Below, piece by piece: positions 3,442-51,131 of a stretch of 57,042 nt of DNA. A program made the position numbers and the translations under genes. Origin of the DNA: Parcubacteria group bacterium LiPW_30 (lineage in GTDB: Bacteria > Patescibacteriota > Minisyncoccia > Phycocordibacterales > VMEP01); contig VMEP01000001.1 in NCBI GenBank assembly GCA_007375595.1, positions 623,089 to 680,130 on the forward strand, read 5' to 3'. Each line of letters begins with the position of its first letter. Position 1 is the stretch's first letter. Below the pieces are notes generated by a model, which was not told the origin of the DNA, searched no databases, and was given only the letters and a program-made list of their open reading frames with translations.

Positions 3442-3479
3442 AAAAAAACCCTGCATCTCTGTATAAGCAGATGCAGGGT
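3442..3479 (-). terminator. hairpin plus T-tract downstream of the putative DGR-target gene 1
   Basis: 11-bp stem accctgcatct/agatgcagggt (3448-3458, 3469-3479) followed by T7 on the minus strand. Confidence 0.75.
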
Positions 3480-3514
3480 CCGTTCAAAAGACCCGAGTGA
3501 CTGAGTCCCGAGTA

Positions 3515-4114
3515 CTACTTGCCGGAAACAGGGACACCGGAAAGAAACCAGCCATCGTGCCAGACGCAGTCGTCGCGGTCGCAGAGCACGCTCCGCTTGC
3601 TGAACCAGCGGCTGAACGCCAGGCAGCAATTGTTGCCCCACTGTGTGCCGTTCGGATGCTCGTCGGCAAAGGCCGGGTCGGCTTCGTTCACGGCAGCTTG
3701 GGCGCGCGGGTCCGACACGAGGCCGTATTGCGCGAGAAACGCTGGGACCTCTTTCGCCGGCACGAAGCGCCTGGTCGGGATGAAATACACGTCAACTTCG
3801 TCACCTTCACCTTGCGGCATTGAGGCAACTGTGTCGTCGCTCAAGTACTTGTTGCGGCCCGTGGCGTTGATCGCTTCCATCGGCGTGCGAGTGCGGTCGA
3901 CGCGGACGCGACGGACGATGATGTCGTTCTGCGCTTCGACGTGCTTGCGGAAAACCGCGACCATCTCATCGAAAGCCATATTCCCTGGCATCTTGAGAAC
4001 GTTCTGCACTGCTTCGAGCGGAAGGCCGGACTCGCGAAGTTTCGTCGCGAGTCGGTCATTAATCTGGCCGATTTGGCCGCCAGTGATGGACTGGGTCCTG
4101 ACAGATGTTGTCAT
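3515..4114 (-). CDS. hypothetical protein with a DGR variable-region-like (CLec-type) C-terminus, target candidate 1
   Basis: AAGGA 7 nt before ATG 4114 (MTTSVRTQ); C-terminus CCLAFSRWFSKRSVLCDRDDCVWHDGWFLSGV is encoded largely by NNC codons; GC-richer than its neighbours. Confidence 0.7.
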   Translation of the reverse strand: MTTSVRTQSITGGQIGQINDRLATKLRESGLPLEAVQNVLKMPGNMAFDEMVAVFRKHVEAQNDIIVRRVRVDRTRTPMEAINATGRNKYLSDDTVASMPQGEGDEVDVYFIPTRRFVPAKEVPAFLAQYGLVSDPRAQAAVNEADPAFADEHPNGTQWGNNCCLAFSRWFSKRSVLCDRDDCVWHDGWFLSGVPVSGK

Positions 4115-4210
4115 TGCGTTATCCTTTTCCGTTGCGCTGTACGACTCGACCCGAACGGGTTTCGCCACAGCAGAGAAGGGCCTATATGCTATAAGCCATT
4201 TTCTGCTATG
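4115..4210 (-). promoter_or_regulatory. conserved structured 5' leader, copy 1
   Basis: Plus strand cgctgtacgactcgacccgaacgggtttcgccacagcagagaa (4135-4177) aligns with 14838-14882. Confidence 0.65.
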
Positions 4211-4348: not shown

Positions 4349-4822
4349 TTATGCAGCTGGTGCTTCTTCTACAGGAGCTTCAGCAACTGCCTCAGCTGGA
4401 GTTTCTGCTACCACCTCAACTGGTGCTTCAGCCGGAGCCTCTTCTACTACCGGTACTTCAGCAGGGATTTCTTCAGGAGCAGGAGTTGCAACTGGTGCTG
4501 GTGCAGGTGTTGCAGGAGCTTCTACTTTAGCTGGTTCATCTTTTTTAATAGGGCTCTTTTTAGGCAAAACGTTTATTTTCTTCCCAGCAATAATTTTTTT
4601 CTCAACTAGGAAATTATGCATTGTGTCTGAAGGCAAAGCTCCGTGTGACATCCAGTGTAAAACACGGTCAGCCTTAATAACGAAGTTCCCGAGCTTAGGT
4701 TCATAAGAACCGATGACCTCAACGAAGTTACCCGTCTTTGGGCTTTCGCGGTGATCAACAACAACCACGCGGAAGTGCGGGCTGTTCTTTCGTCCTATTC
4801 TTTGTAACCTAATTTTTAACAT
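4349..4822 (-). CDS. rpsP: 30S ribosomal protein S16 with an Ala/Pro/Glu-rich C-terminal tail
   Basis: MLKIRLQRIGRKNSPHFRVVVVDHR...EVIGSYEP; the true start is ATG 4822, not GTG 4876. Confidence 0.96.
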   Translation of the reverse strand: MLKIRLQRIGRKNSPHFRVVVVDHRESPKTGNFVEVIGSYEPKLGNFVIKADRVLHWMSHGALPSDTMHNFLVEKKIIAGKKINVLPKKSPIKKDEPAKVEAPATPAPAPVATPAPEEIPAEVPVVEEAPAEAPVEVVAETPAEAVAEAPVEEAPAA

Positions 4823-4872
4823 GCAGGCAATACTAATAGAAATGGCCCGATAGGTCAAGTTTATGTCTCTGT

Positions 4873-4964
4873 GCACACACCACTAAAATACACGCGTAAA
4901 ATTCTGCTGAATTTTCGCTCTGCTCGCCTCGCCAGTCTGCGCAAGGTATTTTAGTGGTGTGTGC
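4873..4964. repeat. TGCT-loop structured repeat, copy A
   Basis: Perfect 19-bp inverted arms gcacacaccactaaaatac (4873-4891) / gtattttagtggtgtgtgc (4946-4964) around a 54-nt core with aaaattc-tgct-gaatttt. Confidence 0.85.
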
Positions 4965-4981
4965 GGAAAAATAAAATGCAT

Positions 4982-5146
4982 AAAACGCGCATAAAACTTT
5001 GCTAAGTTTTTGCTATGCTCGTGTCACGCATAATTTCTTGCTAGAAATTTGCGCGACCCCGACTCGGCTCGTCAGCCTCCGTCTCTCAATTGCTTCACTT
5101 ATCGCAATTGAGCGTCGCACTGCGCAATGTTTTTAAAAACAAAAGC
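4982..5146. repeat. TGCT-loop structured repeat, compound copy E
   Basis: aaaac-gcgcat-aaaactt-tgct-aagtttt-tgctatgctcg ... ctgcgcaat-gtttttaaaaacaaaagc, containing a second aatttct-tgct-agaaatt hairpin and ctcaattgc..gcaattgag. Confidence 0.7.
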
Positions 5147-5252: not shown

Positions 5253-7238
5253 ATGAAAAAGCATACTGATAAACATCATAAAGTGGAGCATAAAAAGGCT
5301 CCTATAAAAGAACACGCCCAAAAGCACCACGAACACACTGTGGAGGGCACTATCACCGTCAGTTTCAAGGGTATTGGTTTTGTTCGTATTGAAGGAGAAG
5401 AGGAATCAATAGAAGTCTCTGCTAATTCACTAAATACTGCGCTTCATGGTGACCGAGTTAAGGTTTCTGTTCACGGCAAAGGACGCAACGGGCAACCACA
5501 AGGTGAAGTTACTGAAATCCTACTTCGGGCAAGATCTGGCTTTGCTGGCACCATAGAAAAAGACCGTGATGTCTATTACCTTATTCCACAAGACCAACGT
5601 GTTTACGTTGACCTTGTTATTCCAAAAGATGATTTAGGGGAAGCAAAAGAGGGAGACAAGGTTTTTGTCGCATTCATTGAGTGGACCGATCCAAAGAAAA
5701 ATCCTATTGGTAAGGTTCTCCGTGTTTTGGGTAAGCCAGGAGAACACGATGCAGAAATGGTTGCTATTGTTTTGGAATCTGGTTTTGATACTGGCTTTCC
5801 AAAAGAAGTTGAGAACGAATCAAAAAAACTTGAAGAAAAAGGTATCACTGAAGATGATTTAAAGGGTCGTCGTGATTTTCGTAACACCACAACATTCACA
5901 ATTGACCCAGAAGATGCCAAAGACTTTGACGACGCTATATCAATTCAAGATTTAGGCGGTGGTGTTTATGAAATCGGTGTACACATCGCCGATGTCTCTC
6001 ATTATGTTCGCCCGGGAACAGAGATTGATAAAGAAGCAATGAAGCGCACGACTTCTATATATCTCGTCGACCGCACAATTCCAATGCTTCCCGAAGGGCT
6101 TTCCAATGGATTATGTAGTTTAAACGCAAACGAAGACAAACTAACCTTTAGTGCTGTTTTTAAAATTGATATGCAGGGGAAAATATCTGACCATTGGTTT
6201 GGTCGCTCTGTTATAAAATCAAACAAACGCTTCACCTACGAAAATGCCCAGGAAACTATCGACAGCGGCTCCGGCGAGTACTACGAAGAACTCGTAATCC
6301 TAAACAAGATTGCTAAAAAACTAAAACAAAAACGTTTTGACGAAGGGGCTATTTCTCTTGAACAAGAAGAAGTGCGATTTAAACTAGACGAAACAGGACG
6401 CCCTGTATCTATTTACAAAAAAGTTCGTGGTGATACCCACAAGCTCGTTGAGGAATTTATGCTACTCGCTAACCGCGAAGTTGCCTCGTTTGTCGCCAAA
6501 AAACACGAGAACGAAGAAGGTGTTTTTGTTTATCGCATTCACGACGAACCAAACACAGAGCGTATTCAAAACCTCGCAATATTCGTTAAGAGCTTAGGTT
6601 ATGACCTAAAAATGACCGACGGAAAAACAACCTCAAGAGACATAAACAATCTTCTAGAAAAACTCGAGGGCACAAGCGTAAAAGACATGATTCAAACCGC
6701 TGTTGTCCGCTCAATGGCAAAAGCAATTTATACAACTCAAAACATTGGCCACTTTGGTTTGGGTTTTGAATTCTATACACACTTCACCTCTCCTATCCGT
6801 CGTTATCCAGACACGATGGTTCACAGACTTTTAGCGCGATATTTAAATAACGAAAAAATAGACGCGAAGGAATGGAAGTTTTACGAAAGAATGTCTACCT
6901 TTTCATCACAACGAGAAAAAGAAGCTTCTGACGCTGAGCGTGGCTCAATCAAATACAAACAAGTGGAATATATGTCGGAACGCATTGGACAAGTTTTTGA
7001 CGGCGTAATTTCTGGGGTTACTGAGTGGGGTTTCTATGTTGAGGAAAAAGAGACGAAGTGTGAAGGTATGGTTCCTTTACGAACATTAAACGATGACTTC
7101 TATAATTTTGAAGAAAAACGCTACCGCTTGGTTGGCGAAAAAACGAAAAAAATATACTCTCTCGGAGATAAAATAAAATTCAAGGTTGAAAAAACAGACC
7201 TTGGAAGAAAAACTATTGATTACTCTTTGGTAAATTAG
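5253..7238 (+). CDS. rnr: ribonuclease R
   Basis: CSD domains, RNB domain (TFTIDPEDAKDFDDA, HFTSPIRRYPD) and a C-terminal S1 domain; ATG 5253 preferred over the track start 5235. Confidence 0.96.
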   Translation: MKKHTDKHHKVEHKKAPIKEHAQKHHEHTVEGTITVSFKGIGFVRIEGEEESIEVSANSLNTALHGDRVKVSVHGKGRNGQPQGEVTEILLRARSGFAGTIEKDRDVYYLIPQDQRVYVDLVIPKDDLGEAKEGDKVFVAFIEWTDPKKNPIGKVLRVLGKPGEHDAEMVAIVLESGFDTGFPKEVENESKKLEEKGITEDDLKGRRDFRNTTTFTIDPEDAKDFDDAISIQDLGGGVYEIGVHIADVSHYVRPGTEIDKEAMKRTTSIYLVDRTIPMLPEGLSNGLCSLNANEDKLTFSAVFKIDMQGKISDHWFGRSVIKSNKRFTYENAQETIDSGSGEYYEELVILNKIAKKLKQKRFDEGAISLEQEEVRFKLDETGRPVSIYKKVRGDTHKLVEEFMLLANREVASFVAKKHENEEGVFVYRIHDEPNTERIQNLAIFVKSLGYDLKMTDGKTTSRDINNLLEKLEGTSVKDMIQTAVVRSMAKAIYTTQNIGHFGLGFEFYTHFTSPIRRYPDTMVHRLLARYLNNEKIDAKEWKFYERMSTFSSQREKEASDAERGSIKYKQVEYMSERIGQVFDGVISGVTEWGFYVEEKETKCEGMVPLRTLNDDFYNFEEKRYRLVGEKTKKIYSLGDKIKFKVEKTDLGRKTIDYSLVN

Positions 7239-7300
7239 ATTTGCCTAAAATAATTAAGTTGAGTTATATTAAAATCTGTTGTTTTTAGGAGAAAGCTAGT

Positions 7301-7525
7301 ATGGATGTTATCGCACCTTCGGGAGATGGATTTTGCCCAGCATGTCACGGGGACGCCATTTATTTCAAACAACTCAACGAAGAAAGGACGGATAAAGATA
7401 TTAAAATAACTCGTCTTTATCACTGTGTTTGTGGTTATAGAGCGAAAGTTGTAACCAATGGCCGAAACATACTCTCTTGCAAGAACCCATCTCCGCAAGA
7501 AGTAGAATCTCTACACGCTTTGTAA
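7301..7525 (+). CDS. small Zn-ribbon-like protein
   Basis: AGGAG at 7287-7291; CPAC...HCVC motifs; converges on the 7542-7565 hairpin. Confidence 0.65.
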   Translation: MDVIAPSGDGFCPACHGDAIYFKQLNEERTDKDIKITRLYHCVCGYRAKVVTNGRNILSCKNPSPQEVESLHAL

Positions 7526-7541
7526 AAAAGTGTCAAACAAA

Positions 7542-7565
7542 AAAACCCGCCAGCTGGCGGGTTTT
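7542..7565. terminator. bidirectional terminator/palindrome between convergent small genes
   Basis: Perfect 24-bp palindrome aaaacccgccagctggcgggtttt. Confidence 0.75.
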
Positions 7566-7585
7566 ATTATTTATGCCACGAATGG

Positions 7586-7876
7586 CTAAATTGTGAACGG
7601 AGTATTCATCATTTCTATGAATTCTTTTTCTCCGACCTTAGGAACATCATCTCCCGCGTGAAGATACTGTCTACCACACTTACGACAAGCCGCAGTGCGA
7701 TAAAGGAATGCCCCGTTAAACCAGCCGGAAACTTCGCGCACAACATCCCCACCGCAATTTTCCGCCTTGCACTTATTGCCAGGTAGTGGAATATTTTCTT
7801 CCTGGAATACCTTCATGGCCTTAAAAAACCTGGCCAAGTTTTCCTCAGACAGCTCAGGAAAATTTCTATTGCTCAT
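7586..7876 (-). CDS. small Zn-ribbon-like protein
   Basis: GGAGG at 7889-7885; CKAENC...CRKC motifs; upstream TTGACT-N17-TATCTT (7942-7914). Confidence 0.7.
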   Translation of the reverse strand: MSNRNFPELSEENLARFFKAMKVFQEENIPLPGNKCKAENCGGDVVREVSGWFNGAFLYRTAACRKCGRQYLHAGDDVPKVGEKEFIEMMNTPFTI

Positions 7877-20034: not shown

Positions 20035-21099
20035 ATGGAAAATAATAACAATGAAGACAAAATAGAGTTAGAAGATATTCCGTCTGAACAAGAAGATCTT
20101 GATATTGACAATGCTTCTTATGAAATCAAAACCTATGGAGCTGATTTTACTATTGAAATTTTGTCAAAAAAATTTGATACAAAAGAAATCATAGTTCCAG
20201 ACTTTCAAAGAAAGTATGTGTGGCCTCCTAAAAAAGCAAGTCGACTAATAGAGTCCTTTTTACTTGGGTTACCGGTTCCTCAAGTATTTTTATACAGAGA
20301 AGAAGAAAATCAAGATTTATTAGTAGTAGACGGCCAACAGCGTTTAAAAACTATAAATTATTTTATTAAAGAGTTATTTGAAAACGAAACAGAATTTTAC
20401 CTAAGGGGTGTAAAACCAGAATGGGAGGGCAAAAAATATTCTACGCTAACCGAACCAGACAGACGAAGATTTAATAATTACATATTAAGAGCAACAATAT
20501 TTGAACAGGTTGATCCAAAAGATCACTCCAGTATTTTTGAAATTTTTGAAAGATTAAACACTGGGGGAATGCCCTTAAATGAGCAAGAAATAAGAAGGTG
20601 TGTTGTTCGTGGCAAGATAAATAGTTTTATAGAAGAATTAAATTTATATCCTAACTGGAGAAAATTACTTAAAAAAGAGTCACCTGATGCACGAATGAAG
20701 GACATAGAAATGATTTTGCGATTTTTTGCGTTATGGCAAAACTGGAAAGATTATAAAAAACCAATGAAGGATTTTGTTACGGAATTTATGAGAAAAAATA
20801 AAGATATCAGCGACGAAAAACAGACGGAATATTCTCAAGTGTTTAAAGATGTCGTAGATAAAATATATACTAACGTTGGTGAAGATGCTTTTAGACTAAA
20901 AGCTGGAATAAATATAGCAATTTTTGATTCAATCATGGCGGCACTAGCTCTTATTGGTGTTAATAACACCAACGACTTGAAAAGTAAAATAACAATACTT
21001 AAAACTAATAACGCATACCTAGACTCGGTATCAAAATCAACAACGGACTCAGATAGAGTAGAAGCTAGAATGAAACTAGCAATCCAGACTTTAAAATAA
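20035..21099 (+). CDS. DUF262 (ParB/Srx-like, GmrS-type) domain protein
   Basis: FQRKYVW, LIESFLLGLPVP, VVDGQQRL, IFERLNTGG; acidic N-terminus. Confidence 0.85.
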   Translation: MENNNNEDKIELEDIPSEQEDLDIDNASYEIKTYGADFTIEILSKKFDTKEIIVPDFQRKYVWPPKKASRLIESFLLGLPVPQVFLYREEENQDLLVVDGQQRLKTINYFIKELFENETEFYLRGVKPEWEGKKYSTLTEPDRRRFNNYILRATIFEQVDPKDHSSIFEIFERLNTGGMPLNEQEIRRCVVRGKINSFIEELNLYPNWRKLLKKESPDARMKDIEMILRFFALWQNWKDYKKPMKDFVTEFMRKNKDISDEKQTEYSQVFKDVVDKIYTNVGEDAFRLKAGINIAIFDSIMAALALIGVNNTNDLKSKITILKTNNAYLDSVSKSTTDSDRVEARMKLAIQTLK

Positions 21100-21564
21100 A
21101 TGAAATCTAGTCTGGCGGAAAAATACATAAAAAAAATAGAGCTAGCCATAGAAGATATTGATAATTTTTCTAATATCTCTGATTTAGAGAAATCTTATCT
21201 GGCAAAATTTTTAGTAGTTTTTATTTGTGGAATTTATGAGGAAATTATAGAGAACGTAATTTACGAACGAATTGATAAACTAAAAAATGTTGAAGTTAGT
21301 ACTTATATCAAAAAAACCGTATCTGGCACATTTCAGAACCCAAACATGGAAAAAATAAAAGATTTGCTGGGAAAATTTAACCCAGGGTGGAAATCGGAAA
21401 TAAGCAAATTACCTATAGAATCGCAAACCGCCATAGATAATATTATTACCCAGAAAAACTCCCTAGCGCACGGAAATGACGTTAACGTTACACTAAAAGA
21501 TATAAAAAGATATTATAAAGATTCTTTGTCTGTAATAAACAAAATAGATGACATGCTTCTCTAG
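21100..21564 (+). CDS. HEPN-domain protein (MAE_28990/RiboL-PSP-like)
   Basis: All-helical 154 aa with FLVVFICGIYE, FQNP and KNSLAHG (HEPN-type motif with K in place of R); abuts the DUF262 gene. Confidence 0.7.
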   Translation: MKSSLAEKYIKKIELAIEDIDNFSNISDLEKSYLAKFLVVFICGIYEEIIENVIYERIDKLKNVEVSTYIKKTVSGTFQNPNMEKIKDLLGKFNPGWKSEISKLPIESQTAIDNIITQKNSLAHGNDVNVTLKDIKRYYKDSLSVINKIDDMLL

Positions 21565-23632: not shown

Positions 23633-23790
23633 ATTTTAAGGGTTAAATCAAAAAAGCGCCTTCGCTTTGTTATAGAAAAGTATATCAGAAAATACCCTAA
23701 ATTGCCAGTATAAATCGGGCAATCGGGCGAACTTTCTTTAGAAAGTTTTAGCCCTAAAATGAAAGCTTTTTAAGGGTAAAATAAGGTGAA

Positions 23791-24354
23791 TTATGGCTTG
23801 AAAAATATGGCCATTCTACGCCAATCGTGCTTAAACGACTTGATATCCACAAAGAGGTCTTTCCCTTGTTCTTTAGAGAGTGATTCTGGCTCATTGAAGT
23901 AAAACCCTGTGAGTTGACCTTTCCTTTCAGGAAACTCAACTCCATCATTTTCTTCATAACCAGTTAATACCACCATGTGAAATTTTATCTGGCCGAGGGT
24001 ATATTTTGAAACAGAAACAATTACTGGACGTCCATCTTTAAGTTCATCGTGTATTTTTTGCAAACCTAAAATTTCTCCTATCTTCTCCCCTCTTTCAGAA
24101 TTTAAACCGTACTCCTTAGCTGTCTTCACAAAGTAATCATGGAACCATCCTGATGGACCATACCCTCCATCCTTCTTCCCTTTTTCACACATCTCCAAAA
24201 GTGACGGAGTCTTTATCATTCTAGTATTTTGCAAAATACTAGAATGATAATCTAACACCATTTTTAAACACGTCATGCCACAAGCTCTCGGCATCCAATA
24301 TGGGTTGTCGTTTACATCTAAGAATTGAGAATAGTATGGTACGTTAAGTTTCAT
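23791..24354 (-). CDS. C39-like papain-fold peptidase
   Basis: VPYYSQ, ACGMTCLKM (catalytic Cys), FHMVVLTGY (His), YFNEP; 1-nt overlap with the CDPS stop. Confidence 0.8.
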   Translation of the reverse strand: MKLNVPYYSQFLDVNDNPYWMPRACGMTCLKMVLDYHSSILQNTRMIKTPSLLEMCEKGKKDGGYGPSGWFHDYFVKTAKEYGLNSERGEKIGEILGLQKIHDELKDGRPVIVSVSKYTLGQIKFHMVVLTGYEENDGVEFPERKGQLTGFYFNEPESLSKEQGKDLFVDIKSFKHDWRRMAIFFKP

Positions 24355-25043
24355 TATCTTACTTCTAAAAATACCTTCGGCTCTGTGTCAATAATATTTT
24401 CTTTAATTTCTGGAAAAATCCGACCAAACTGTATATCCTCCACAAACCTTACTAAATCGCTGTCAAAAGGATACATGTAAGCATCAGTAATTAAATTTCC
24501 AAAAGAAACACGACAAAGAATTTCTGGTAATTCTTCTATTATATACGTACCAAGTTTATTTATTTCTTCATCGTCAAACTTTCTTTCCTCTTTTGAAACA
24601 TAGCTGATAACCAATTCATGTATCTGCTTTTTAAATTCTTCGTTTTTTATATAAAAAGAACATAAGTATTCCAATTTTTTTTTATATGATTCATTTAATA
24701 AACTATTCCAATTTTTATAATAAATTCGATTTATATCATCCTTACTAAAAGTTTTTTCTACTTGATTTTTCACATCAGACAAAATTCTACTCCCTTGATC
24801 AAGCGCCAAACGCATAGCTTTCTCTTTTGAAATTTTTTTTCTAACCTCTAAGTTAATGGAGTGGATACTATCCGCAACATAGACCAAAACAAAATCCTTT
24901 GTGTTTTGTAAAGCCCACCTTATCTCTTCTATTATGTTTTCAGTAGTAAACCACTTATTACCCAAACTAATTCCTACCCCAATGTTGTATTGTTTATTCT
25001 CCAAATCTATTATGTTTCCGCCCCTAATTTTATGTAATTCCAT
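24354..25043 (-). CDS. tRNA-dependent cyclodipeptide synthase (XYP subfamily)
   Basis: GVGIS26LGN29, Y167IIE-E171LP and Y191-P192 match the CDPS catalytic set (AlbC S37/N40/Y178/E182/Y202/position 203). Confidence 0.85.
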   Translation of the reverse strand: MELHKIRGGNIIDLENKQYNIGVGISLGNKWFTTENIIEEIRWALQNTKDFVLVYVADSIHSINLEVRKKISKEKAMRLALDQGSRILSDVKNQVEKTFSKDDINRIYYKNWNSLLNESYKKKLEYLCSFYIKNEEFKKQIHELVISYVSKEERKFDDEEINKLGTYIIEELPEILCRVSFGNLITDAYMYPFDSDLVRFVEDIQFGRIFPEIKENIIDTEPKVFLEVR

Positions 25044-25052
25044 ACTAATTCT

Positions 25053-27398
25053 CTACCTTACCTGCCAACCCTCCTTACTATTAAGAGCGTTTGTTACGCG
25101 ATTCATAATTTCATCAAGTTCTATGTCACTAAGTGTTTTTTCTTGGGATAAAAATACTAGATGGAAAGCGTAAGAAATTTTGCTATCCTTTTCGAATTTA
25201 TCAAACATCTCTATTCGCGTAAGTAAACTACCTGCTTCACTTTTAATAATTTCTTTTACAGCATCTTCTCCTGTTCCACTACCCACAAACACCGCAATAT
25301 CACGAAGCGCAAATGGATAAGGAGAAACTGTTTTATAACTAGAGCCTAGCAAAAACTGGTAAGTCAAAACTTCATGTTCTTTAGGTTCTTCAAGTTTTTC
25401 AATTACTGCATCAAAATCAATTTCTGTAATACATGGCTTTTCTTCGCAGGAAACAAACTTTGAAACGTCCACGCCAAAAGTTTCCCCTATTTCTTTAACA
25501 ATGCTTTTTGCTTCCTCCCCAAAATTATCTTTCTTTGTTCCTCCACCCAAAGCAAATGCCAGTTTTTTAATTTCGCTATCTTTAGTAAACACATTGCCAA
25601 ATTCAAAAATCTTAATTACCTTCTGCCCAAGAAGCGGAGCATTGTGAACATTTAATTTAAGAGATTCTTCCATCCCTTTTCGTAAACTTACGCGTAATTT
25701 TTCCTTATCTCCTGCAAGACCTTTTATAATTGAAACTTCACCCTCACTTCCAAAGGTGTATGTCATTACCTCAGAAAATCCGTGATTGAGCAATATTTCA
25801 CGAACCTTATCCTCGTAAAACAAGCGTTTATGAACCAAACCAACCCGAGAAAGTTTTGGTAGTACAGGAACTAATTTTTCATAACCCAAAATACGTCCTA
25901 TTTCTTCTGCAAGATCCTCTTTGATACGAATATCTAAACGCTCAGAAGGAACATTTACCACGTATCTCTCTTCTTTTAAATTTTCCACCACTCTCCCATA
26001 TCCAACTATTTTTCTTGTTGCCGAAAACTCCTCCATACTTTCCACAACGACTTTCCCGTGCACTCTTGTTGAGTGAACGATTTTGCCACCACCTAAATAC
26101 ATACCAACATGATCAACCCCCTCAGGAACTTTAGTTCCTCTTAAAAATTCTACTGATTCAAAATAAATTTTTCCTTCGCCAGAATTCGCAAACACTAAAT
26201 CTCCAAACCTTAATTCTTCTAATTTTACTCTTTCCGAAAAAACATATTTATCAACGGAAATACTCGGCATCCAAATACCTTTATATAAATAACTAATCAA
26301 AGAAGAACAATTAAAGGCGTGTGGAGCATCTTCGCGCATACTTGAAGGGTTTTTGTATGGCACCCCAACAACAGCCTTATACGTTTCTGTTATATAATTT
26401 TCAGGAATTATTTTTTCAAAAGAAAAAGAAAGTCTTCTAAGGGTGCTTTCAACATCGTTATTGGTATATGTTGTACCTAGAATCATATTCAGTTCGGAAA
26501 GCGAAATTCCCACATGATATTTAGTATCCTTGCGAAGATACACATCTGTTGCGACACTCCCTTCCACATCTTTACATAACTCCTTAATTAAATTCGCCGT
26601 CATATATAAACCTTCTTCTATAAGAGAGTTTGCAATACCATTTTCAAAACGCTTGGATGCGTCTGTGTGGAGGTCATACCTTTGTGAGGTCTTCCTAATT
26701 AAACTTGGATTGAAGTTGGCACTTTCAAGAATAATACTTGTTGTGTCTTCATTTATACCACTATGTTTTCCGCCCTTTATTCCAGCAAGACCGAGAGATT
26801 TTTCTTCATCGGCAATCACAAGAGTTTTCTCATCAAGTGCCAGTTCTTTGTCGTCGAGTGTAGTAAGCACTTCTCCACTCTTCGCAAAACGAGTGGCGAG
26901 CGTTCCTTTTATACTCCTTGTGTCATAAGCGTGCATTGGCTTATTAAGCGCGAATTGCACGTAATTAGTCGCATCAACGATGTTGTTTATACTTCTCTGC
27001 CCTATTGCCTCAAGGCGCGTTTTTAACCACTCTGGGCTTTCCTCGACAACAACACCGTCAATCCTCATGCTCATAAATCGTGAACAAAATTTAGCATCAT
27101 TAACGGAAAGCACAGGAGCAGGAACTAAAGAATTAGTAAAATCATCTCGTTTTTCAACACGTGAATCTTCTTTAAAAGTAAGTCCTAAATCAGCACATAA
27201 TTCACGGGCCATACCACGGTGTCCTAGTGCATCGTGTGCGCGATTTGGAAGAACTTTAATATCGTAAACAGTGTCATTAGGTAAAGAAGTAACCTCTTCT
27301 ACTTCAAACGATTTTTTATTTAAGGTATCAACAACAACCTCATTTTCGGGAAGAGTTTCAACAATATAATCTTGTAGCCATTGTTTAGAGAATTTCAT
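25053..27398 (-). CDS. pheT: phenylalanine--tRNA ligase beta subunit lacking B2, with an NlpC/P60 domain inserted in B5
   Basis: PNRAHD..RGMARE, B3/4 ESANF, B5 split around an insert and resuming at VPSERLDI..EDLAEEIGRI, C-terminal FDX-ACB RDIAV. Confidence 0.93.
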   Translation of the reverse strand: MKFSKQWLQDYIVETLPENEVVVDTLNKKSFEVEEVTSLPNDTVYDIKVLPNRAHDALGHRGMARELCADLGLTFKEDSRVEKRDDFTNSLVPAPVLSVNDAKFCSRFMSMRIDGVVVEESPEWLKTRLEAIGQRSINNIVDATNYVQFALNKPMHAYDTRSIKGTLATRFAKSGEVLTTLDDKELALDEKTLVIADEEKSLGLAGIKGGKHSGINEDTTSIILESANFNPSLIRKTSQRYDLHTDASKRFENGIANSLIEEGLYMTANLIKELCKDVEGSVATDVYLRKDTKYHVGISLSELNMILGTTYTNNDVESTLRRLSFSFEKIIPENYITETYKAVVGVPYKNPSSMREDAPHAFNCSSLISYLYKGIWMPSISVDKYVFSERVKLEELRFGDLVFANSGEGKIYFESVEFLRGTKVPEGVDHVGMYLGGGKIVHSTRVHGKVVVESMEEFSATRKIVGYGRVVENLKEERYVVNVPSERLDIRIKEDLAEEIGRILGYEKLVPVLPKLSRVGLVHKRLFYEDKVREILLNHGFSEVMTYTFGSEGEVSIIKGLAGDKEKLRVSLRKGMEESLKLNVHNAPLLGQKVIKIFEFGNVFTKDSEIKKLAFALGGGTKKDNFGEEAKSIVKEIGETFGVDVSKFVSCEEKPCITEIDFDAVIEKLEEPKEHEVLTYQFLLGSSYKTVSPYPFALRDIAVFVGSGTGEDAVKEIIKSEAGSLLTRIEMFDKFEKDSKISYAFHLVFLSQEKTLSDIELDEIMNRVTNALNSKEGWQVR

Positions 27399-28234
27399 AT
27401 GTGTTTTGAAATAATGCTCGACAATTCTTTATGATGGTTTGTAAATGTATGACTACAATTTACCAATTTATAACCAGTAAAATCTAACAGGGTATCTTTA
27501 AGAAGATTCATTGCGACGTCTATTGGAACAATCGTCCATTCCTCATGCTCATCGTCTCCAATAATACCAATAACTGGTATGGTAATATCTTTCAAGTGCT
27601 CAAGATTGCCAGAGGCAAAAGGCAATGCTTGTTTAAATTTATTGTCACTACCATAAAAGTCAATGTATGATTGCGCAGACATTGGAATTTCTCCCGAATG
27701 TACCGGCAATCCGGACGAAAGTAATCTTTGTCCAAAACTTTGTTCTACTAAATTATTTGCTTCTTCCATAAAATCAAAATCATTTTTCTTAAGATACCTC
27801 TCTTGGGAACCAAAACTATCCGAGAAACCAAGAAGAAACAACTTTGTTACCTTATTTTTATAATTCCCGTTTTTACTATAATAAGCAACCTTTTCAGACC
27901 CCAGAGAATGCCCCGAAAGAATAATAGATTCATATCCATTATCTAACGCAAACTTTATCCAAGCATCAATATCAAATACACTGTCCTCAAATTTCTCTAC
28001 TGCTGCGCCAGACTGTTGCCAGGCCTCAAGTAAGTATGCTCCTCGGTTGTTTACAAATAAGCTGTCAATATTTTTCAAACCAAGAACTTCCATTATTTCT
28101 TGTTCATACCCTTCCATATAAAAACTAGAGCCAGTCCCATGGGTATGTAAAAACATGGCCTTGCTATGATTTATATCATTCATCATCCCATAAAGCTCGA
28201 GCCCATCTTTTGTTATAACAGAGACAATTTTCAT
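27395..28234 (-). CDS. alpha/beta hydrolase (DUF1749-like)
   Basis: HTHGTGSSFY, nucleophile elbow SGHSLG, late D and H (DDEH, HTF); ATGA overlap with pheT. Confidence 0.8.
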   Translation of the reverse strand: MKIVSVITKDGLELYGMMNDINHSKAMFLHTHGTGSSFYMEGYEQEIMEVLGLKNIDSLFVNNRGAYLLEAWQQSGAAVEKFEDSVFDIDAWIKFALDNGYESIILSGHSLGSEKVAYYSKNGNYKNKVTKLFLLGFSDSFGSQERYLKKNDFDFMEEANNLVEQSFGQRLLSSGLPVHSGEIPMSAQSYIDFYGSDNKFKQALPFASGNLEHLKDITIPVIGIIGDDEHEEWTIVPIDVAMNLLKDTLLDFTGYKLVNCSHTFTNHHKELSSIISKHI

Positions 28235-28236
28235 GT

Positions 28237-29064
28237 TTAAAATTGATTAACCACCCGAAGATCACCATTGTATAAAAGACGTACGTCGTCAATTCCGTAT
28301 TTAAGCATCACCATTCTGTCTATTCCGCAACCAAAAGCAAAACCGCGGTATTCGCGAGGATTAATACCACCCGCTTCAAGCACGCGAGGATGAACCATTC
28401 CTGCGCCACCTATTTCTATCCAGCCTGTTTGTTTGCAAATATTACATCCACTTCCTTTACACTTAAAACACTGCATATCAAATTCATTGCCGGGTTCAAC
28501 GAAAGGAAAGTACGACGAACGAAGTCTAATTACAATATCTGTTTCAAAAAATTCTGAAAAAAGTTTCTGCATTACCCCAACCATCATTGAAAGAGATGAG
28601 TCTTTAGCAACATAAAAACCTTCAATTTGATAAAACTGCGCTTCGTGTGTCGCATCTGTTGCTTCATTACGAAAAACTTTTCCAGGACAACAAATTGCGA
28701 GTGGAAAATCGCGACCTTCCGCCACATACTTTTCCATCGCCCGAATCTGCATGTTGCTTGTATGAGTGCGAAGAACATATCCGACATCTTCGCCATACTT
28801 ATTTTTACTCCTCATGTCTTTAATCCAAAAAGTATCCTGCATATCGCGAGCTGGGTGATCACCAGGAACGTTTAGTGCGTCAAAGTTGTGCCACTCATTT
28901 TCAAGCTCTGGACCATCAACAGTATCAAACCCCATTCTTGAGAAAATGCTTGAAATACGATTAATTGCAATAGTTATCGGGTGTATATGTCCTAAACCAA
29001 GCTTTGCTTGGTCGGGCGAACTTCCGTTAGGAAGTTTTAGTCCTCTTTCTTCCTGAGATAGCAT
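28237..29064 (-). CDS. pheS: phenylalanine--tRNA ligase alpha subunit, short form
   Basis: HPARDMQDTF, LRTHTS, FRNE..DATH, YFPFVEP, GFAFGCGIDR; lacks the N-terminal coiled-coil arm. Confidence 0.97.
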   Translation of the reverse strand: MLSQEERGLKLPNGSSPDQAKLGLGHIHPITIAINRISSIFSRMGFDTVDGPELENEWHNFDALNVPGDHPARDMQDTFWIKDMRSKNKYGEDVGYVLRTHTSNMQIRAMEKYVAEGRDFPLAICCPGKVFRNEATDATHEAQFYQIEGFYVAKDSSLSMMVGVMQKLFSEFFETDIVIRLRSSYFPFVEPGNEFDMQCFKCKGSGCNICKQTGWIEIGGAGMVHPRVLEAGGINPREYRGFAFGCGIDRMVMLKYGIDDVRLLYNGDLRVVNQF

Positions 29065-29106
29065 AATTCTTTGATTATAGCCAAATAGAGTCGTTAGACA
29101 AAGTTT

Positions 29107-43911: not shown

Positions 43912-44511
43912 TTAACGGCCTAAATTATACAGTTGTTTAATTTCTGTCGCTGAAAGAGCGCGGTTGTAAACACGAACATCATCAATCAGTCCTTCAAAAC
44001 TAGCAGTGCCAGCTCCAGCTGATCTATAACCTATAATTGCGTTATTGGTAAGACCCGTTTTACTTCCGGACAACGCCTGTGATTTATCGAGAAGGCCGTT
44101 TATGTAAAGAATTATATTTAAAGAGTCCACCACTTGGCATCCGTGTTGCCACGTGTTGTTATTAACTGTAGCATTACTGTCTATCGTGTTGCTGTTGCCA
44201 CTATACCAAATATGCCCCCGAAGTTTTCCCAGATATGACATTAGTAGGTAATGCCCGTTTGTCCCAACCCCATTAGAAATAATGTCTGCTTCCGTATCTG
44301 TTGTCTTAAACCACGAACAAAGAGTAAAATTCCCCGCACCTAAATTTAGTGTCGAAGGCGACCCAAGATTAATATAACTACTGGTCCCGTTGAAACTAAG
44401 GGCCTGTCCAATTTTACCTATAACGGGAGAGCTTGTTGTGCTCATTCCAACAAGAGTCCCATCATTTCCCTGCCCACTTCTATCAAGCGATTTATTTGTC
44501 GCCCAATTCAT
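43912..44511 (-). CDS. LamG-like jellyroll domain; probably the C-terminal part of the 44508-46004 gene
   Basis: IDDVRVYNRALS; begins mid-domain (the GLVGYW start is missing) at the edge of a 100-bp duplication. Confidence 0.75.
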   Translation of the reverse strand: MNWATNKSLDRSGQGNDGTLVGMSTTSSPVIGKIGQALSFNGTSSYINLGSPSTLNLGAGNFTLCSWFKTTDTEADIISNGVGTNGHYLLMSYLGKLRGHIWYSGNSNTIDSNATVNNNTWQHGCQVVDSLNIILYINGLLDKSQALSGSKTGLTNNAIIGYRSAGAGTASFEGLIDDVRVYNRALSATEIKQLYNLGR

Positions 44512-46004
44512 ATCCTTACCATCAAAAGACCTCGAGAGGCATTTAACGTTACCTGTCCACCAGATTTATATAAATCTGAAACTTCAGACGCAGATAAAGC
44601 ACGATTATAAACACGAATGTCATCGATTTTACCATTAAAATATCTCCCACCACCCGCATACCCAAGACCAGCGCTAAAGTTCATCGTCGTGGCTGGGACT
44701 ATGTCGCTGACGCAATTTCCACGTGCACTCACCTGTTCAACTCCGTTTAGATAAACATAACAATAGCTAGCATCTTTAATAGCGACTACGTGAGTCCAAG
44801 TATTAGCCGTAAGGTTGAACGTACCACTATTGTTTGTCCACCCGACACCATTACCATAACTCCACAGAAACTGATTTGTGGTAGCAGCATTCTGTTGCAT
44901 TACTATGCCTTTCACATCCCCCTGATGATTTCCCCAAATATCAGCGTAGGTCATTTGCGTACTTCCAGGATTAACCCAAGCTGAAACGGTAATGGCGGTG
45001 GTGATATTCGGAAACTTTGTGCCAAAATCAACAACACTATTAGTACCATTGAAACTCAAAGCCTTTCCCAATTTTCCTGTTACCCACGTTGGACTGTTTA
45101 ATAAAGTTCCGTTATTTTTATACCCAGAAACATCATCGGCCCGCGTCCCGACCCCCTCATTCATCGGCCAATATCCAACCAACCCGGTTTTACCAGATAC
45201 AATTGTTTTTATTATTCCACCATCACCAGCTTTATATAAATCTAAAATTTCAGACGCAGTTAAAGCCCGATTATAAATTCGCACTTCGTCAATTAACCCC
45301 TTAAATGGGTAATACCCGGGAGAACTAAACATTCCAATTTCAATTCCACCACCAGTTAAGTTTATATTGCCAGTTGCTGCGCATGTATTTTTTAAAACAC
45401 CATCAACATACACTTTCATGTTTGCCCCATCGTAAGTAGAAACTGCGTGATGCCACACCCCTTCAGACGGCTCGGTGACTAGGCAGTCTTGCATACTAGG
45501 ATGCTCCAATCTCATTTTTAAACCACCTTCAATGAACATTGCGTACGAAGTATTTACCGTCGCTTTGTGCAATAACCATTTATTTGTTCCACTACCAACA
45601 TCTTTCTTATACCAAACAGACATGGTGATATTGTTAGTAAGGTCCAACGCAGAATTATATGGAGCTGAAACAATACTATCTGTACCATTGAAATAGAGAG
45701 CTTTTCCAAAACGCCCTGATGACCATGTGGTGTTAGCGACTGTTCCGTTAATCCCCTTACCGGATGCATCCCCCGTTTTAGTGCCAACCCCCTCGTTAAA
45801 AGCCCAGTAACCAACTAAGCCATTTTTATTTGCAGTTTTTACAGCCGAAGCAGAAGTGATTATTGGTGCGACAAAAAAAGTAAAAACTAACAAACCAACA
45901 AACACAAACCTCCCATATTTGGAGGTTTCACCTCCAAATATGGAGTTCTCGTTTTTATTATTTTTTTTAAAAAAAATTTTCATAAAGATAAATACGATAC
46001 ACAA
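44508..46004 (-). CDS. exported multi-LamG (concanavalin A-like) protein
   Basis: N-terminal hydrophobic segment; two GLVGYW...IDEVRIYNRAL domains. Confidence 0.85.
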   Translation of the reverse strand: MCIVFIFMKIFFKKNNKNENSIFGGETSKYGRFVFVGLLVFTFFVAPIITSASAVKTANKNGLVGYWAFNEGVGTKTGDASGKGINGTVANTTWSSGRFGKALYFNGTDSIVSAPYNSALDLTNNITMSVWYKKDVGSGTNKWLLHKATVNTSYAMFIEGGLKMRLEHPSMQDCLVTEPSEGVWHHAVSTYDGANMKVYVDGVLKNTCAATGNINLTGGGIEIGMFSSPGYYPFKGLIDEVRIYNRALTASEILDLYKAGDGGIIKTIVSGKTGLVGYWPMNEGVGTRADDVSGYKNNGTLLNSPTWVTGKLGKALSFNGTNSVVDFGTKFPNITTAITVSAWVNPGSTQMTYADIWGNHQGDVKGIVMQQNAATTNQFLWSYGNGVGWTNNSGTFNLTANTWTHVVAIKDASYCYVYLNGVEQVSARGNCVSDIVPATTMNFSAGLGYAGGGRYFNGKIDDIRVYNRALSASEVSDLYKSGGQVTLNASRGLLMVRI

Positions 46005-46010
46005 AAATCT

Positions 46011-46685
46011 CTAACGACCTAAATTATACAGTTGTTTAATTTCTGTCGCTGAAAGAGCCCGGTTGTAAACACGAACGTCATCAATGTTTGCGTTAAGTCT
46101 GCGAGCATTAGCTCCCCCTATTTCTCTTCCCATATATAAATTATCTATCTGATTTATTGTTCCAGAAGGAAACGTTGGGGATTGCTGAACATCGAGTTGG
46201 CCATTTAGGTAGTAGTTAAGCTTGCCGTTTGTCCTGTCAAAAACAACAACCCAGTGTTGCCATGTTCTTAATGGAACAACGCTTGTACTTTGAGTAGCAG
46301 TAACATCAAAACCAATTGATCCGTCTGCGTAATGGGCCCCTATTTTACTACTGGCGGTTGAGTAGGAAACAGCCCACCCCTTATCGGTGCTCGTAGTCCA
46401 TGGACGAGAACCAACAACTTGCGGATAATCAGATAAACCAGTACCCAAACGATATATCCAAAAACTAACCGCCCAATTACCAGTGAGTGGTTGAAGTGAT
46501 GAAGTATTATTAACAGAAATATAATCATCTGAGCCGTCAAATTTTAAAGCAGAGCCAATTTTACCTGGAGTCGGACTAGTTGTTGTGCTCATTCCAACAA
46601 GAGTCCCATCATTTCCCTGCCCACTTCTATCAAGCGATTTATTTGTCGCCCAATTCATATCCTTACCATCAAAAGACCTTGTCAT
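46011..46685 (-). CDS. LamG-like domain; probably the C-terminal part of the 46669-48069 gene
   Basis: Same SFDGKDMNWATNK start as the 43912 ORF; IDDVRVYNRALS. Confidence 0.75.
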   Translation of the reverse strand: MTRSFDGKDMNWATNKSLDRSGQGNDGTLVGMSTTTSPTPGKIGSALKFDGSDDYISVNNTSSLQPLTGNWAVSFWIYRLGTGLSDYPQVVGSRPWTTSTDKGWAVSYSTASSKIGAHYADGSIGFDVTATQSTSVVPLRTWQHWVVVFDRTNGKLNYYLNGQLDVQQSPTFPSGTINQIDNLYMGREIGGANARRLNANIDDVRVYNRALSATEIKQLYNLGR

Positions 46686-48069
46686 TTTGACTGGAATTAA
46701 TTGTCACCGCTCTAAGTTTGTAAAGTTCGTTAATTTCTGACTGCGAGAGAACTTTATTATACAAACGAATGTCGTCAATTTTACCAGTAAAGTGGTATCC
46801 GCTGTCATCGTAAACAGCATATCTTCCAACTGTTTGAGATGTCAGTGCATAAAAAGTTTCCGTTGTACTTGATGCAATCTCTGTTGTATTACTATAAATT
46901 TTTATTCCACCATCACTTGCTTTCGTAACTACGAGCTGTCGCCACCCCGATGAAGTTCCTCCACCTGACCCTGTTGCAACAGTAACCCATGATCCAGTAT
47001 ATTTTTGTAAATACGCCCCGCTCGCTGTTGCCGTAAACCAAAAAGTTGGGGCTCCGGACCAGACAATCCCAGAACCTTTAACCCAAGCAACAAAAGTTAG
47101 CTCAGTTGCACTATTAAAAATATTCCCAGTGCCCAAATATCCAAGCTTTTGTGGAGACGTCCCGCATGTTGCCCAGTTAGTTATAGATATTCTGCCCGTC
47201 ACAGCGTCGGTTGTTGTTGATAAGCATGTTCCATAAACCGTAAAGTTATTTTTCTTACCACTATAATCACCGTAATCGCCATTAAGTGGCCAATAACCCA
47301 AAAGGTTTGTGTTAACAGAGTTTTTTTGTACAGTTGTACCAGATTTATATATTGTAATAATCTCGGACACCGCCAAGGCTCGATTATAAACACGCACATC
47401 ATCTATTAACCCAGAAAAAAATTCACTCGTCGCCGCATTGTAAGCACGTGTCCCGATTACCCAATTATTATCCGCGCAAGTAGTAGTTGTATTCGCAACA
47501 GTCCCGATTGAAACACCATTAATAAACCCTTGCATACCAGCCGGACTAAAAACTATAGACAAGTGTTGCCATTGATTTGCAACAATTGTCCCGCCTAAGG
47601 CGTAATCATTAGTACTGTTTCGTCCACGCAAAACTCCACCAGAATAAATTGTCATTCCATAATTAAAACAACTTCCACTCGCTCCTTTTGAAAAAACTGT
47701 TTGTTGCCCACTAACTGTATTTGGTTTTATCCAAGCAGATATTGTCACATTACCAGCAGTACCAACGTTTGATAAAGCTGAACCACTACCAACAACGTAA
47801 CTACTGCTTCCATTAAAACTAAGCGCCTTACCAAACTTGCCACCAGTCCACGTTGGACTGTTTGTCAGTGTGCCGGTATTTCCGTTACCAGATGCATCCC
47901 CTGCTTTTGTCCCGTAATTATCGTTAAATGACCAGTAACCAATCAGTCCTGTTTTCGTTGGTGTTTTTACTGTCGCCGCGGCAGAAACCATAAGTGGTGT
48001 TGCAATAAAAATGAAAATAAAAAAACTAGTAGTAGTTAATTTTATTATATTTTTAAAGTTTGTTTTCAT
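46669..48069 (-). CDS. exported multi-LamG protein
   Basis: Signal-like N-terminus; two LamG domains (GLIGYW, LLGYWP). Confidence 0.85.
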   Translation of the reverse strand: MKTNFKNIIKLTTTSFFIFIFIATPLMVSAAATVKTPTKTGLIGYWSFNDNYGTKAGDASGNGNTGTLTNSPTWTGGKFGKALSFNGSSSYVVGSGSALSNVGTAGNVTISAWIKPNTVSGQQTVFSKGASGSCFNYGMTIYSGGVLRGRNSTNDYALGGTIVANQWQHLSIVFSPAGMQGFINGVSIGTVANTTTTCADNNWVIGTRAYNAATSEFFSGLIDDVRVYNRALAVSEIITIYKSGTTVQKNSVNTNLLGYWPLNGDYGDYSGKKNNFTVYGTCLSTTTDAVTGRISITNWATCGTSPQKLGYLGTGNIFNSATELTFVAWVKGSGIVWSGAPTFWFTATASGAYLQKYTGSWVTVATGSGGGTSSGWRQLVVTKASDGGIKIYSNTTEIASSTTETFYALTSQTVGRYAVYDDSGYHFTGKIDDIRLYNKVLSQSEINELYKLRAVTINSSQNDKVF

Positions 48070-48074
48070 AAATT

Positions 48075-51000: not shown

Positions 51001-51131
51001 CGTTGAATGGAATGGCCGCCAGGATTTACAATACTTCCACCATTACCAACAACCGCGGGTCCTGCAACAAAAGTATTTGCAACAGGGTCATAAATAGAAG
51101 TATCGGAGGAACCATTCGCCAACACAACCAA
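48075..51131 (-). CDS. C-terminal part of the giant surface protein: propeller repeats, two intramolecular-chaperone-like (peptidase G2-like) domains, Thr-rich tail
   Basis: GGADIAEYF...GRVPVKV...GDFLTASS...MKA; second copy SGIAEHF...GDRITLSS...MKA; GITMYD..GAPYCL; the frame continues from 51247. Confidence 0.8.
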   Translation of the reverse strand: MVVLANGSSDTSIYDPVANTFVAGPAVVGNGGSIVNPGGHSIQRPDGKFLSVLGNNTATTTVYDAGWVTSGSYQSEYIYNPSLDSTSALMWTGNADSFKPGAVSFRVKTAATNDALATATWRSVPTSGGLINPTSGDVWMQVRVDMKREIPRQPNSQKNVWLGESSVVYNRLPLNDEENKAGVFSKPTITGFKVINTNNSDLATFSSGGQNLFRFSSGGNAYTTTGGSWNAGGADIAEYFPTDDSSLEPGDVVSVSPEDSSGLVSKSSGAYDAYTVGVITTTPGVLLGSDISGGQAGKAPVALAGRVPVKVSFEGGEIKKGDFLTASSKPGIAMKATDAGRVVAIALESYSLSDFENGKTSILAMINTIEYSGNGGFFSTAGKKLSLWAKAVTESLNSLGIFAENGKIGIGTGTSTPMSTLTVSGGTSIGENYNVEAPKNGLIVEGNVGVGTTTPIAKLTVQGSNFGGFTSKIGEMGSTTVSELVLPLTFAALDAEGNTSFVITGDGRVGIGISAPKSALNISAPSPRLTLTDTASVIEAIGTNGSVGVGIISTTTKDWFVESKNGTFSIGEILNSTDINGSSTENTYLSISATSTPVLTFAGNIKANIISAKTIISEGMCVASFCDVLNSNTISSDRFASTQSGIAEHFADLSSPEIEAGDIVAMSATTTPNQASTITGATTTSAVLVRADKTNMASVVGIANIAGLTFSSTSTSPSVVFSGKTVVKVSTEGGVIKPGDRITLSSIPGVGMKATTSSQTIGIALSSFDGTQSATSTVTSTNVDGTFVYQGSVVVSVSVGWTHLDSSIANATSTSVTLAVDSTTGRVASQGVLDMAGFAIENVGAITGASGTWSIDASGKLLADNIEVRGGVKIGSPDRRSGITMYDEESGAPYCLTVSGGLPKTTSGECLVGGSTAVTQTSSSSVVGSIVDALSGSVNALTETTTTYTAPVDTTATTTTVDTATTTTPAITDTTTEATATTPITTETVVEPITTTDTTVTETTTTSTTETATSTPAI

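Follow-up and report, generated by a model that had tools for sequence, protein, structure and literature searches.

A predicted ParcuCDPS-type cyclodipeptide synthase encoded directly behind pheT in Parcubacteria group bacterium LiPW_30

Closest described cyclodipeptide synthases

We analyzed a 57,042-nucleotide (nt) stretch of DNA (here, the window) from Parcubacteria group bacterium LiPW_30 (contig VMEP01000001.1, positions 623,089 to 680,130), in which the gene directly downstream of pheT is predicted to encode a tRNA-dependent cyclodipeptide synthase (CDPS). The closest described enzyme is ParcuCDPS of Parcubacteria bacterium RAAC4_OD1_1 (GenBank accession no. ETB63777.1; PDB 7QB8), which is CDPS 90 of the XYP type and yields 44% cyclo(His-Pro) and 56% cyclo(His-Glu), with a low yield of cyclo(His-Pro) in Escherichia coli (0.4 mg/L) (PMC5816076). 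ParcuCDPS also forms diketopiperazines (DKPs) in vitro with purified components; its catalytic set consists of S26, Y167, E171, and Y191, with D58 as the essential hydrogen-bond partner of S26, while Y55, E174, and Y189 are the P1 residues that select histidine, as validated by mutagenesis, and G84 is a helix-breaking peculiarity (PMC7613923). In the scheme that defines the two substrate pockets by AlbC positions, its motifs are GAYAWELY (P1, His) and FEWKYTR (P2, Pro/Glu) (PMC5816076). The positive surface of its P2 has been linked to glutamate use, and R196 was proposed to favor Glu (Sutherland et al.).

The LiPW_30 protein resembles ParcuCDPS in length, catalytic set, S26-D58 dyad, histidine-selecting triad, G84, and N29 at the X position of the XYP signature. 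It differs in the P2 motif, at two P1 positions, and in gene context, the ParcuCDPS gene following an arginine/diaminopimelate-decarboxylase-like gene. The other XYP enzymes of solved structure, Nbra-CDPS (5MLQ), Rgry-CDPS (5MLP), and Fdum-CDPS (5OCD), have the same Rossmann-like fold, catalytic Ser/Tyr/Glu/Tyr residues, and Tyr-Pro pair, but are only 15 to 17% identical to the LiPW_30 protein (TM scores, 0.56 to 0.70); their substrates are small or hydrophobic amino acids, and they do not have the Asp58 dyad geometry of ParcuCDPS (PMC7613923). The NYH subfamily, represented by AlbC (3OQV), has in common the ping-pong mechanism on aminoacyl-tRNAs and the catalytic core, and the Asn of the LiPW_30 protein matches AlbC N40; however, AlbC has Tyr-His where the LiPW_30 protein has Y191-P192, and the similarity is low (phmmer E = 0.12; TM scores, 0.56 to 0.61). 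Apart from ParcuCDPS, acceptance of His-tRNA is known only for ParaCDPS of Parabacteroides sp. 20_3, a cyclo(His-Phe) synthase (PMC7613923), which belongs to another CDPS lineage and was not among the relatives in any of our searches. A literature search for CDPSs in the candidate phyla radiation (CPR) or DPANN turned up only the two papers on ParcuCDPS and general surveys of biosynthetic gene clusters.

Identification of the gene

The CDPS gene is an ATG-initiated open reading frame (ORF) on the minus strand, whose translation contains S26, N29, Y55, D58, Y167, E171, E174, Y189, Y191, and P192. A sequence-only reading of the window had named it an XYP-type CDPS because of S26, N29, Y167, E171, and Y191-P192, and had pointed to a Parcubacteria enzyme with corresponding residues that makes cyclo(His-Pro) and cyclo(His-Glu). 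The catalytic set is confirmed by direct translation, the description of that enzyme is right according to the two ParcuCDPS papers (PMC7613923 and PMC5816076), and all of the residues named for it coincide. The profile search that this reading had left as a check gives matches above the curated cutoffs, both to Pfam PF16715 (34.3 bits; cutoff, 27) and to NCBIfam TIGR04539 (54.7 bits; cutoff, 45). In a sequence search of the PDB, the top matches are seven entries of the RAAC4_OD1_1 enzyme; residues 1 to 229 align with residues 1 to 229 of wild-type ParcuCDPS (7QB8; E = 5e-67), with 47.6% identity over the full length and no gap. Because of the scores against PF16715, TIGR04539, and 7QB8, the identification is beyond chance.

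The predicted structure agrees with this assignment. An AlphaFold2 model obtained with 30 relatives as input has a pLDDT of 96.9, and in Foldseek the ParcuCDPS structures rank first (TM scores, 0.84 to 0.91, with 0.87 to 0.91 for 7QAX and 7QB8; root mean square deviation, 2.7 to 2.9 Å), whereas CDPSs other than ParcuCDPS score between 0.56 and 0.77. The 50 best PDB matches of the model are all CDPSs, and the Rossmann fold similar to that of class I aminoacyl-tRNA synthetases (aaRSs), which is typical of CDPSs, is present.

S26, Y167, E171, and Y191 occupy the positions of the catalytic Ser/Tyr/Glu and the cyclization Tyr (S37, Y178, E182, and Y202 in AlbC), and Y191-P192 is the Tyr-Pro pair at AlbC positions 202 and 203 that marks XYP enzymes. 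These residues are nearly invariant in 149 relatives (S26 in 147, Y167 in 146, E171 in 147, Y191 in 144, and P192 in 147), N29 occurs at the X position in 144, and D58, the partner of S26, is found in all 149. Across 141 core members, 55 alignment columns are conserved at 90% or more, and the window CDPS agrees with the consensus at every one of them.

To compare loci, 35 genome loci (L001 to L035), a Logan contig (L036), a JGI contig (L037), and three relatives examined at the pheT site (L038 to L040) were used. L036, an independent assembly from a groundwater run, is 100% identical to the window over 7,590 nt spanning pheS, pheT, and the CDPS gene; the pheT-CDPS junction is therefore real and not an assembly artifact. 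Taken at the level of its sequence, the ORF is a genuine tRNA-dependent cyclodipeptide synthase, a rather canonical addition to the known ParcuCDPS subfamily, and the enzyme is, by prediction, almost certainly active.

Substrate pockets and predicted product

Mapped from the AlbC scheme, P1 comprises residues 22, 24, 55, 57, 112, 174, 175, and 189, and P2 comprises residues 144, 147, 148, 151, 193, 195, and 196. The P1 motif of the window CDPS, GGYAWEIY, is the second commonest of the family; it is identical to that of ParcuCDPS at six of eight positions, the two substitutions (A24G and L175I) are conservative, and the histidine triad Y55/E174/Y189 is intact. P1 is also stable over the 149 relatives (W112 in 148, E174 in 138, Y55 in 137, and Y189 in 101, with Phe at this position in 26). 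We thus predict, with moderate confidence, that the first substrate is histidine, and since P1 is conserved and P2 is not, the product is best predicted as cyclo(His-X).

We consider it likely that the window encodes an active, stand-alone synthase of the ParcuCDPS type, which makes a cyclo(His-X) and whose gene was inserted behind pheT without any dependence on PheRS. The aminoacyl part of the first aminoacyl-tRNA, most probably His-tRNA(His), would enter P1 (G22, G24, Y55, A57, W112, E174, I175, and Y189) and be transferred to Ser26, activated by Asp58. A second aminoacyl-tRNA would then supply an amino acid through the wider P2, giving a dipeptidyl-enzyme, and Tyr191 would aid the cyclization that releases the cyclo(His-X) DKP. 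The gene would most likely be transcribed by read-through from the pheS promoter, its position being a landing site.

Several points weigh against this reading. (i) The P2 motif of the window CDPS is LSYKFSD, which has only K151 in common with FEWKYTR of ParcuCDPS (one of seven positions). (ii) R196, the positive residue proposed to favor Glu, is Asp in the window CDPS, and the positive P2 surface is not conserved. (iii) ParcuCDPS (locus L021) departs from the consensus at 7 of the 55 conserved columns (G9C, L14I, G24A, R178Q, D194K, T220N, and V224I), compared with a family median of 2; because it is atypical in its own family, the extrapolation of specificity from it is uncertain. (iv) The authors of the pocket scheme warn that it was derived from NYH enzymes by alignment to AlbC and may fail for XYP enzymes (PMC5816076). 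(v) The numbers of promoter and terminator matches in the region are not above the shuffled background. (vi) The gene may have been lost in sister lineages rather than gained here, which is the less parsimonious history.

A narrower reading, implied by the sequence-only reading, is that the products are the very ones of ParcuCDPS, namely, cyclo(His-Pro) and cyclo(His-Glu), which we regard as possible but doubtful. All seven mutagenized residues coincide, P1 is nearly identical, and the top matches in both sequence and structure are ParcuCDPS; but the P2 motif agrees at only one of seven positions, and the two charge changes in it, E147S and R196D, take away the positive patch that is proposed to draw in Glu. 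P2 is also hypervariable in the family: the 149 sequences have 123 different motifs, and FEWKYTR is limited to ParcuCDPS and its near-twin L019. The second residue X may, as for ParcuCDPS, be Pro or Glu, yet the P2 of the window CDPS is very different. For the alignment with characterized CDPSs that the sequence-only reading had proposed, the agreement with ParcuCDPS extends to P1 and not to P2.

Among CDPS subfamilies of solved structure, only this one accepts histidine, and the window CDPS adds a consensus-like member to it. Because the characterized member is atypical of its family, a consensus-like enzyme may be of use for enzyme engineering.

Probable insertion behind pheT

The CDPS ATG lies 9 nt past the TAG stop codon of pheT, as the sequence-only reading had it. 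A functional significance of the linkage to PheRS is not supported. The linkage exists only in the window, in L001 (CDPS 92% identical), and in L037 (89%); none of the other 34 genome loci has it. In L038 and L039, whose PheT is 76% identical to that of the window, pheT is followed directly by the gene for a C39-like peptidase (91% identical) and gyrB, with no CDPS gene between them. The C39-like gene was thus the ancestral neighbor of pheT. In L040 (PheT 66% identical), an unrelated gene of 265 amino acids (aa) occupies the slot between pheT and the C39-like gene; it was considered as a divergent CDPS and rejected, as it shows no similarity. The C39-like peptidase, whose start codon overlaps the CDPS stop codon (TAATG), was likewise rejected as a partner, because it follows pheT where the CDPS is absent and adjoins the CDPS in no other locus. 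The simplest history would be a single insertion of the CDPS gene between pheT and the C39-like gene in an ancestor that the window shares with L001 and L037. The gene has since been kept under purifying selection: the ratio of nonsynonymous to synonymous substitutions (dN/dS) among these three loci is 0.12 to 0.23, and dS is comparable to that of pheT.

The same comparison bears on whether the position is functional, that is, whether the CDPS draws Phe-tRNA(Phe) from the coexpressed PheRS, so that its product is a DKP with Phe, for example, cyclo(His-Phe). The 9-nt spacing is conserved in three genomes, P2 is more hydrophobic and aromatic than in ParcuCDPS (L144, Y148, and F193), and a cyclo(His-Phe) synthase, ParaCDPS, is known from another CDPS lineage. 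Nevertheless, the rarity of the linkage, the sister operons without a CDPS gene, and the near-chance frequency of aaRS genes beside CDPS genes (see below) make this improbable. Moreover, aminoacyl-tRNAs diffuse freely, and we know of no case of channeling from an aaRS to a CDPS. A coupling of PheRS and CDPS as a general rule was rejected, given its restriction to three loci and the sister lineages that lack a CDPS gene at this site.

On the minus strand, an 8- to 10-nt direct repeat, (A)AGTAAGATA, ends both pheT (25053-25064) and the CDPS gene (24354-24365), and it is found in L001 and L037 as well. This repeat brackets the inserted block and may be an insertion microhomology or, because both ORFs end in Val-Arg-stop, a coincidence.

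The slot between pheS and pheT is also polymorphic. The window carries an alpha/beta-hydrolase-like gene (27395-28234) that occurs there only in this strain. L001 has a 119-aa ORF (7245-7604), L037 has a 143-aa ORF and a GNAT acetyltransferase gene (6720-7641), L039 has a HIT-like 143-aa ORF (4565-4996), and the slot is empty in L038 and L040. The PheRS operon seems to collect accessory genes in both slots, pheS/pheT and pheT/C39.

Gene row and transcription

The five genes of the row (Table 1) are separated by 2 nt (pheS to the hydrolase-like gene), −4 nt (an ATGA overlap), 9 nt, and −1 nt, and no terminator-like site was found by scanning within the row from pheS to the C39-like gene. Because of these tight spacings, the lack of an internal terminator-like site, and the location of the best promoter match upstream of pheS, read-through is the natural reading, and cotranscription of the CDPS gene with pheT from the pheS promoter is plausible on this layout. 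Among the sequencing runs that hold the sequence there was no RNA run; those of DNA come from metagenomes of groundwater, subsurface, aquatic, and soil origin.

Table 1. Features of the CDPS gene row in the window
Feature	Position	Strand	Basis or remark
Sigma-70-like promoter match TTGTCT-16-TATAAT (10/12), the best of the region, just upstream of pheS	29074..29101	-	Consensus match only
pheS (PheRS alpha, 275 aa), first gene of the row	28237..29064	-	TIGR00468, 277.2 bits
Gene for an alpha/beta-hydrolase-like protein of 279 aa with a GHSLG motif, in the pheS/pheT slot	27395..28234	-	Weak Pfam hits below cutoff
pheT (PheRS beta, 781 aa) with inserted NlpC/P60 domain	25053..27398	-	TIGR00472, 417.8 bits; Pfam B3_4, NLPC_P60, B5, tRNA_synthFbeta, FDX-ACB
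Spacer of 9 nt, AGAATTAGT, from pheT stop (TAG) to CDPS ATG, without terminator-like hairpin	25044..25052	-	Junction reading; equal spacing in L001 and L037
Predicted CDPS of 229 aa; XYP type with N at the X position, member of the ParcuCDPS subfamily	24354..25043	-	ORF, residues, Pfam and NCBIfam cutoffs, 7QB8 match, AlphaFold2/Foldseek
Peptidase_C39_2-like cysteine peptidase (187 aa), ATG overlapping the CDPS stop	23791..24354	-	Pfam PF13529, E = 1.3e-13
Terminator-like hairpin and T-run past the C39-like gene, about 20 nt before gyrB	23653..23668	-	Weak; could equally be gyrB leader

Neighborhoods in other loci

We surveyed the 123 genes that lie within two positions of the CDPS gene in 34 other loci. 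No recurring tailoring partner (cyclodipeptide oxidase, P450, methyltransferase, or prenyltransferase) was found, and any given Pfam family is represented by at most 2 of the 123 neighbors. A conserved tailoring enzyme was sought and rejected; a cluster of proteins resembling S-adenosylmethionine-dependent methyltransferases is present in five loci, but at scattered positions. AlbC, whose gene lies in a cluster with a cyclodipeptide oxidase gene, differs in this respect from the window CDPS, which has no tailoring partner. An enrichment of aaRS genes beside the CDPS gene was likewise rejected: two or three of the 123 close neighbors encode aaRSs, which is about chance given the gene content of small genomes. 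The CDPS gene lies downstream of prfB-ftsE-ftsX in seven loci; elsewhere it is found by dnaX or secA or by the gene for a penicillin-binding protein, a P-type ATPase, or a DNA ligase.

This embedding in rows such as prfB-ftsE-ftsX, dnaX, secA, and PheRS, with no tailoring or export gene recurring nearby, together with the low yield of ParcuCDPS in E. coli, would suit a housekeeping-like role in which aminoacyl-tRNA is used for another acceptor or for control of the charged-tRNA pool, and in which the DKP is a side reaction. We give this little credence, as ParcuCDPS makes DKPs in vitro, the full cyclization machinery including Y191 is conserved, and a patchy distribution with sister lineages lacking the gene is a poor fit to an essential role.

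Base composition

The G+C content of the CDPS gene, 29.3%, is the lowest among the 48 ORFs picked in the window (mean, 40.7%). The composition was compared in 33 loci with at least five long neighboring ORFs (the window and 32 of L001 to L035). G+C content is below that of the neighbors in 32 of the 33 (e.g., 43% versus 60% in L035 and 37% versus 52% in L029), and G+C at second codon positions is lower in all 33, which reflects amino acid composition. G+C at third codon positions (GC3) is lower in 30 of the 33, by a mean of 9.6 points (Wilcoxon P = 7e-8), with a slope of 0.5 against neighbor GC3. This family-wide deficit is greatest where the host genome is rich in G+C, and it hints that low-GC donors have repeatedly passed on the gene by horizontal transfer or that AT-rich codons are selected for.

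The window CDPS gene shows only a small GC3 deficit (z = −0.8), so that composition alone cannot date the insertion, and low G+C content as proof of a recent transfer into this genome is weakened. The lowest G+C content of the window would speak for the view that the gene is a recently acquired, nonfunctional passenger in decay. That view is effectively refuted, and we hold it to be extremely improbable: three diverged genomes carry an intact ORF, its dN/dS is low, it deviates at none of the 55 conserved columns, and a low G+C content is a property of the whole family.

Distribution of the ParcuCDPS subfamily

With a word-indexed search, 229 clusters (90% identity level) were retrieved at E ≤ 1e-3. 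Identity to the window CDPS is 48 to 100% in the best 120 of the 229 clusters, and almost all of these proteins have 229 aa; the 4 of these 120 with a named source are all Parcubacteria or Zambryskibacteria. A profile search of 1.84 billion representatives at 50% identity gave 615 clusters at E ≤ 1e-3, 241 at E ≤ 1e-10, and 79 at E ≤ 1e-30. From species-representative genomes, 35 CDPS loci were recovered, including that of RAAC4_OD1_1 itself. Some loci labeled Nanoarchaeota, Woesearchaeota, or Pacearchaeota carry ParcuCDPS-like genes at 31 to 38% identity, and at least two of these are truly archaeal, since L033 encodes MCM and L028 encodes GatD. Thus, the ParcuCDPS subfamily is common in Paceibacteria and reaches DPANN archaea. 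The sequence-only reading had proposed that the product may be a signal or effector and had called this unusual for the CPR; the latter is not supported, as the type enzyme is itself parcubacterial and relatives are as numerous as given above.

The DPANN archaeal loci with ParcuCDPS-like genes are L025, L027, L028, L030, L031, L033, and L034. In these archaeal sequences, Tyr55 of P1 is replaced by Leu in four and by Trp in two. In L027, a histidyl-tRNA synthetase gene on the same strand stops some 45 nt ahead of the CDPS gene, and in L028, the gene for ProRS lies three genes upstream and that for GatD directly downstream. Several of the metagenome-assembled genome records (L001, L004 to L006, L009, L013, L017, L019, L024, L026, L032, and L035) are titled “Candidatus Saccharibacteria,” “Pseudomonadales,” or “Bdellovibrionales,” and these labels look unreliable.

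In Paceibacteria and some DPANN archaea, organisms that are not expected to make small molecules, genes of this subfamily recur as accessory genes without tailoring partners. This poses the puzzle that cells which must import amino acids spend charged tRNAs on DKPs. The reach into DPANN, the GC3 deficit in 30 of 33 loci, the diversity of P2 (123 motifs in 149 sequences), and the polymorphic insertion would fit a broader view, which we offer as speculative and unlikely, namely, that ParcuCDPS-type synthases are a horizontally exchanged, stand-alone trait of ultra-small presumed episymbionts in both domains (Paceibacteria and DPANN), which, with a conserved histidine pocket and a hypervariable second pocket, make lineage-specific cyclo(His-X) compounds used in dealings with hosts or competitors. 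Our findings do not show a new kind of system, and the linkage to PheRS is not general.

Other features of the window

Apart from the CDPS gene, the window holds genes for translation, replication, glycolysis and the pentose phosphate pathway, and surface proteins, with no other biosynthetic gene; this content fits a reduced CPR genome, and 57 kb cannot prove minimal biosynthesis. The contig that encodes the CDPS is 680 kb long.

The PheT protein itself is odd. Between B3_4 and B5, at about residues 338 to 470, it has an NlpC/P60 (C40 peptidase) insert. PheT also lacks the N-terminal part of the bacterial PheT model, its match to which starts at model position 157. The insert (PF00877) is present in all of the 120 best PheT homologs (the named ones being mostly Paceibacterota or Parcubacteria), some of which are annotated in NCBI as “C40 family peptidase.” The named closest homologs are mostly from “Candidatus Paceibacterota,” Pacebacteria, Parcubacteria, and Nomurabacteria, with one of eight labeled Gracilibacteria. 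We found no discussion of a cell wall hydrolase fold inside an aaRS subunit.

Between thrS and gyrB, two adjacent plus-strand genes (20035-21564; G+C content, 30 to 31%) encode GmrSD_N (DUF262-type) and RiboL-PSP HEPN proteins. Because thrS stands beside gyrB without this pair in L001, L037, and L038, they look like inserted defense-like genes. Three islands with a G+C content of 55 to 62% (3451-4200, 10301-11000, and 14151-14800) stand out in the 41% G+C window. Each encodes a protein of about 205 to 220 aa with ordinary composition and no Pfam hit; the three are mutually dissimilar and have no Rfam match, and the third has weak paralogs at two places in L037.

On the minus strand at 43912-57036, four tandem paralogous genes encode Laminin_G_3 (ConA-like lectin) proteins, with ORFs of 1,982 and 1,018 aa upstream in the same row; a Pfam scan of the 1,018-aa ORF gave no hit. 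This row is probably a surface or attachment block, typical of episymbiotic CPR bacteria. Finally, a single minus-strand ORF of 307 aa (11894-12817) joins NusB and NUDIX hydrolase domains.

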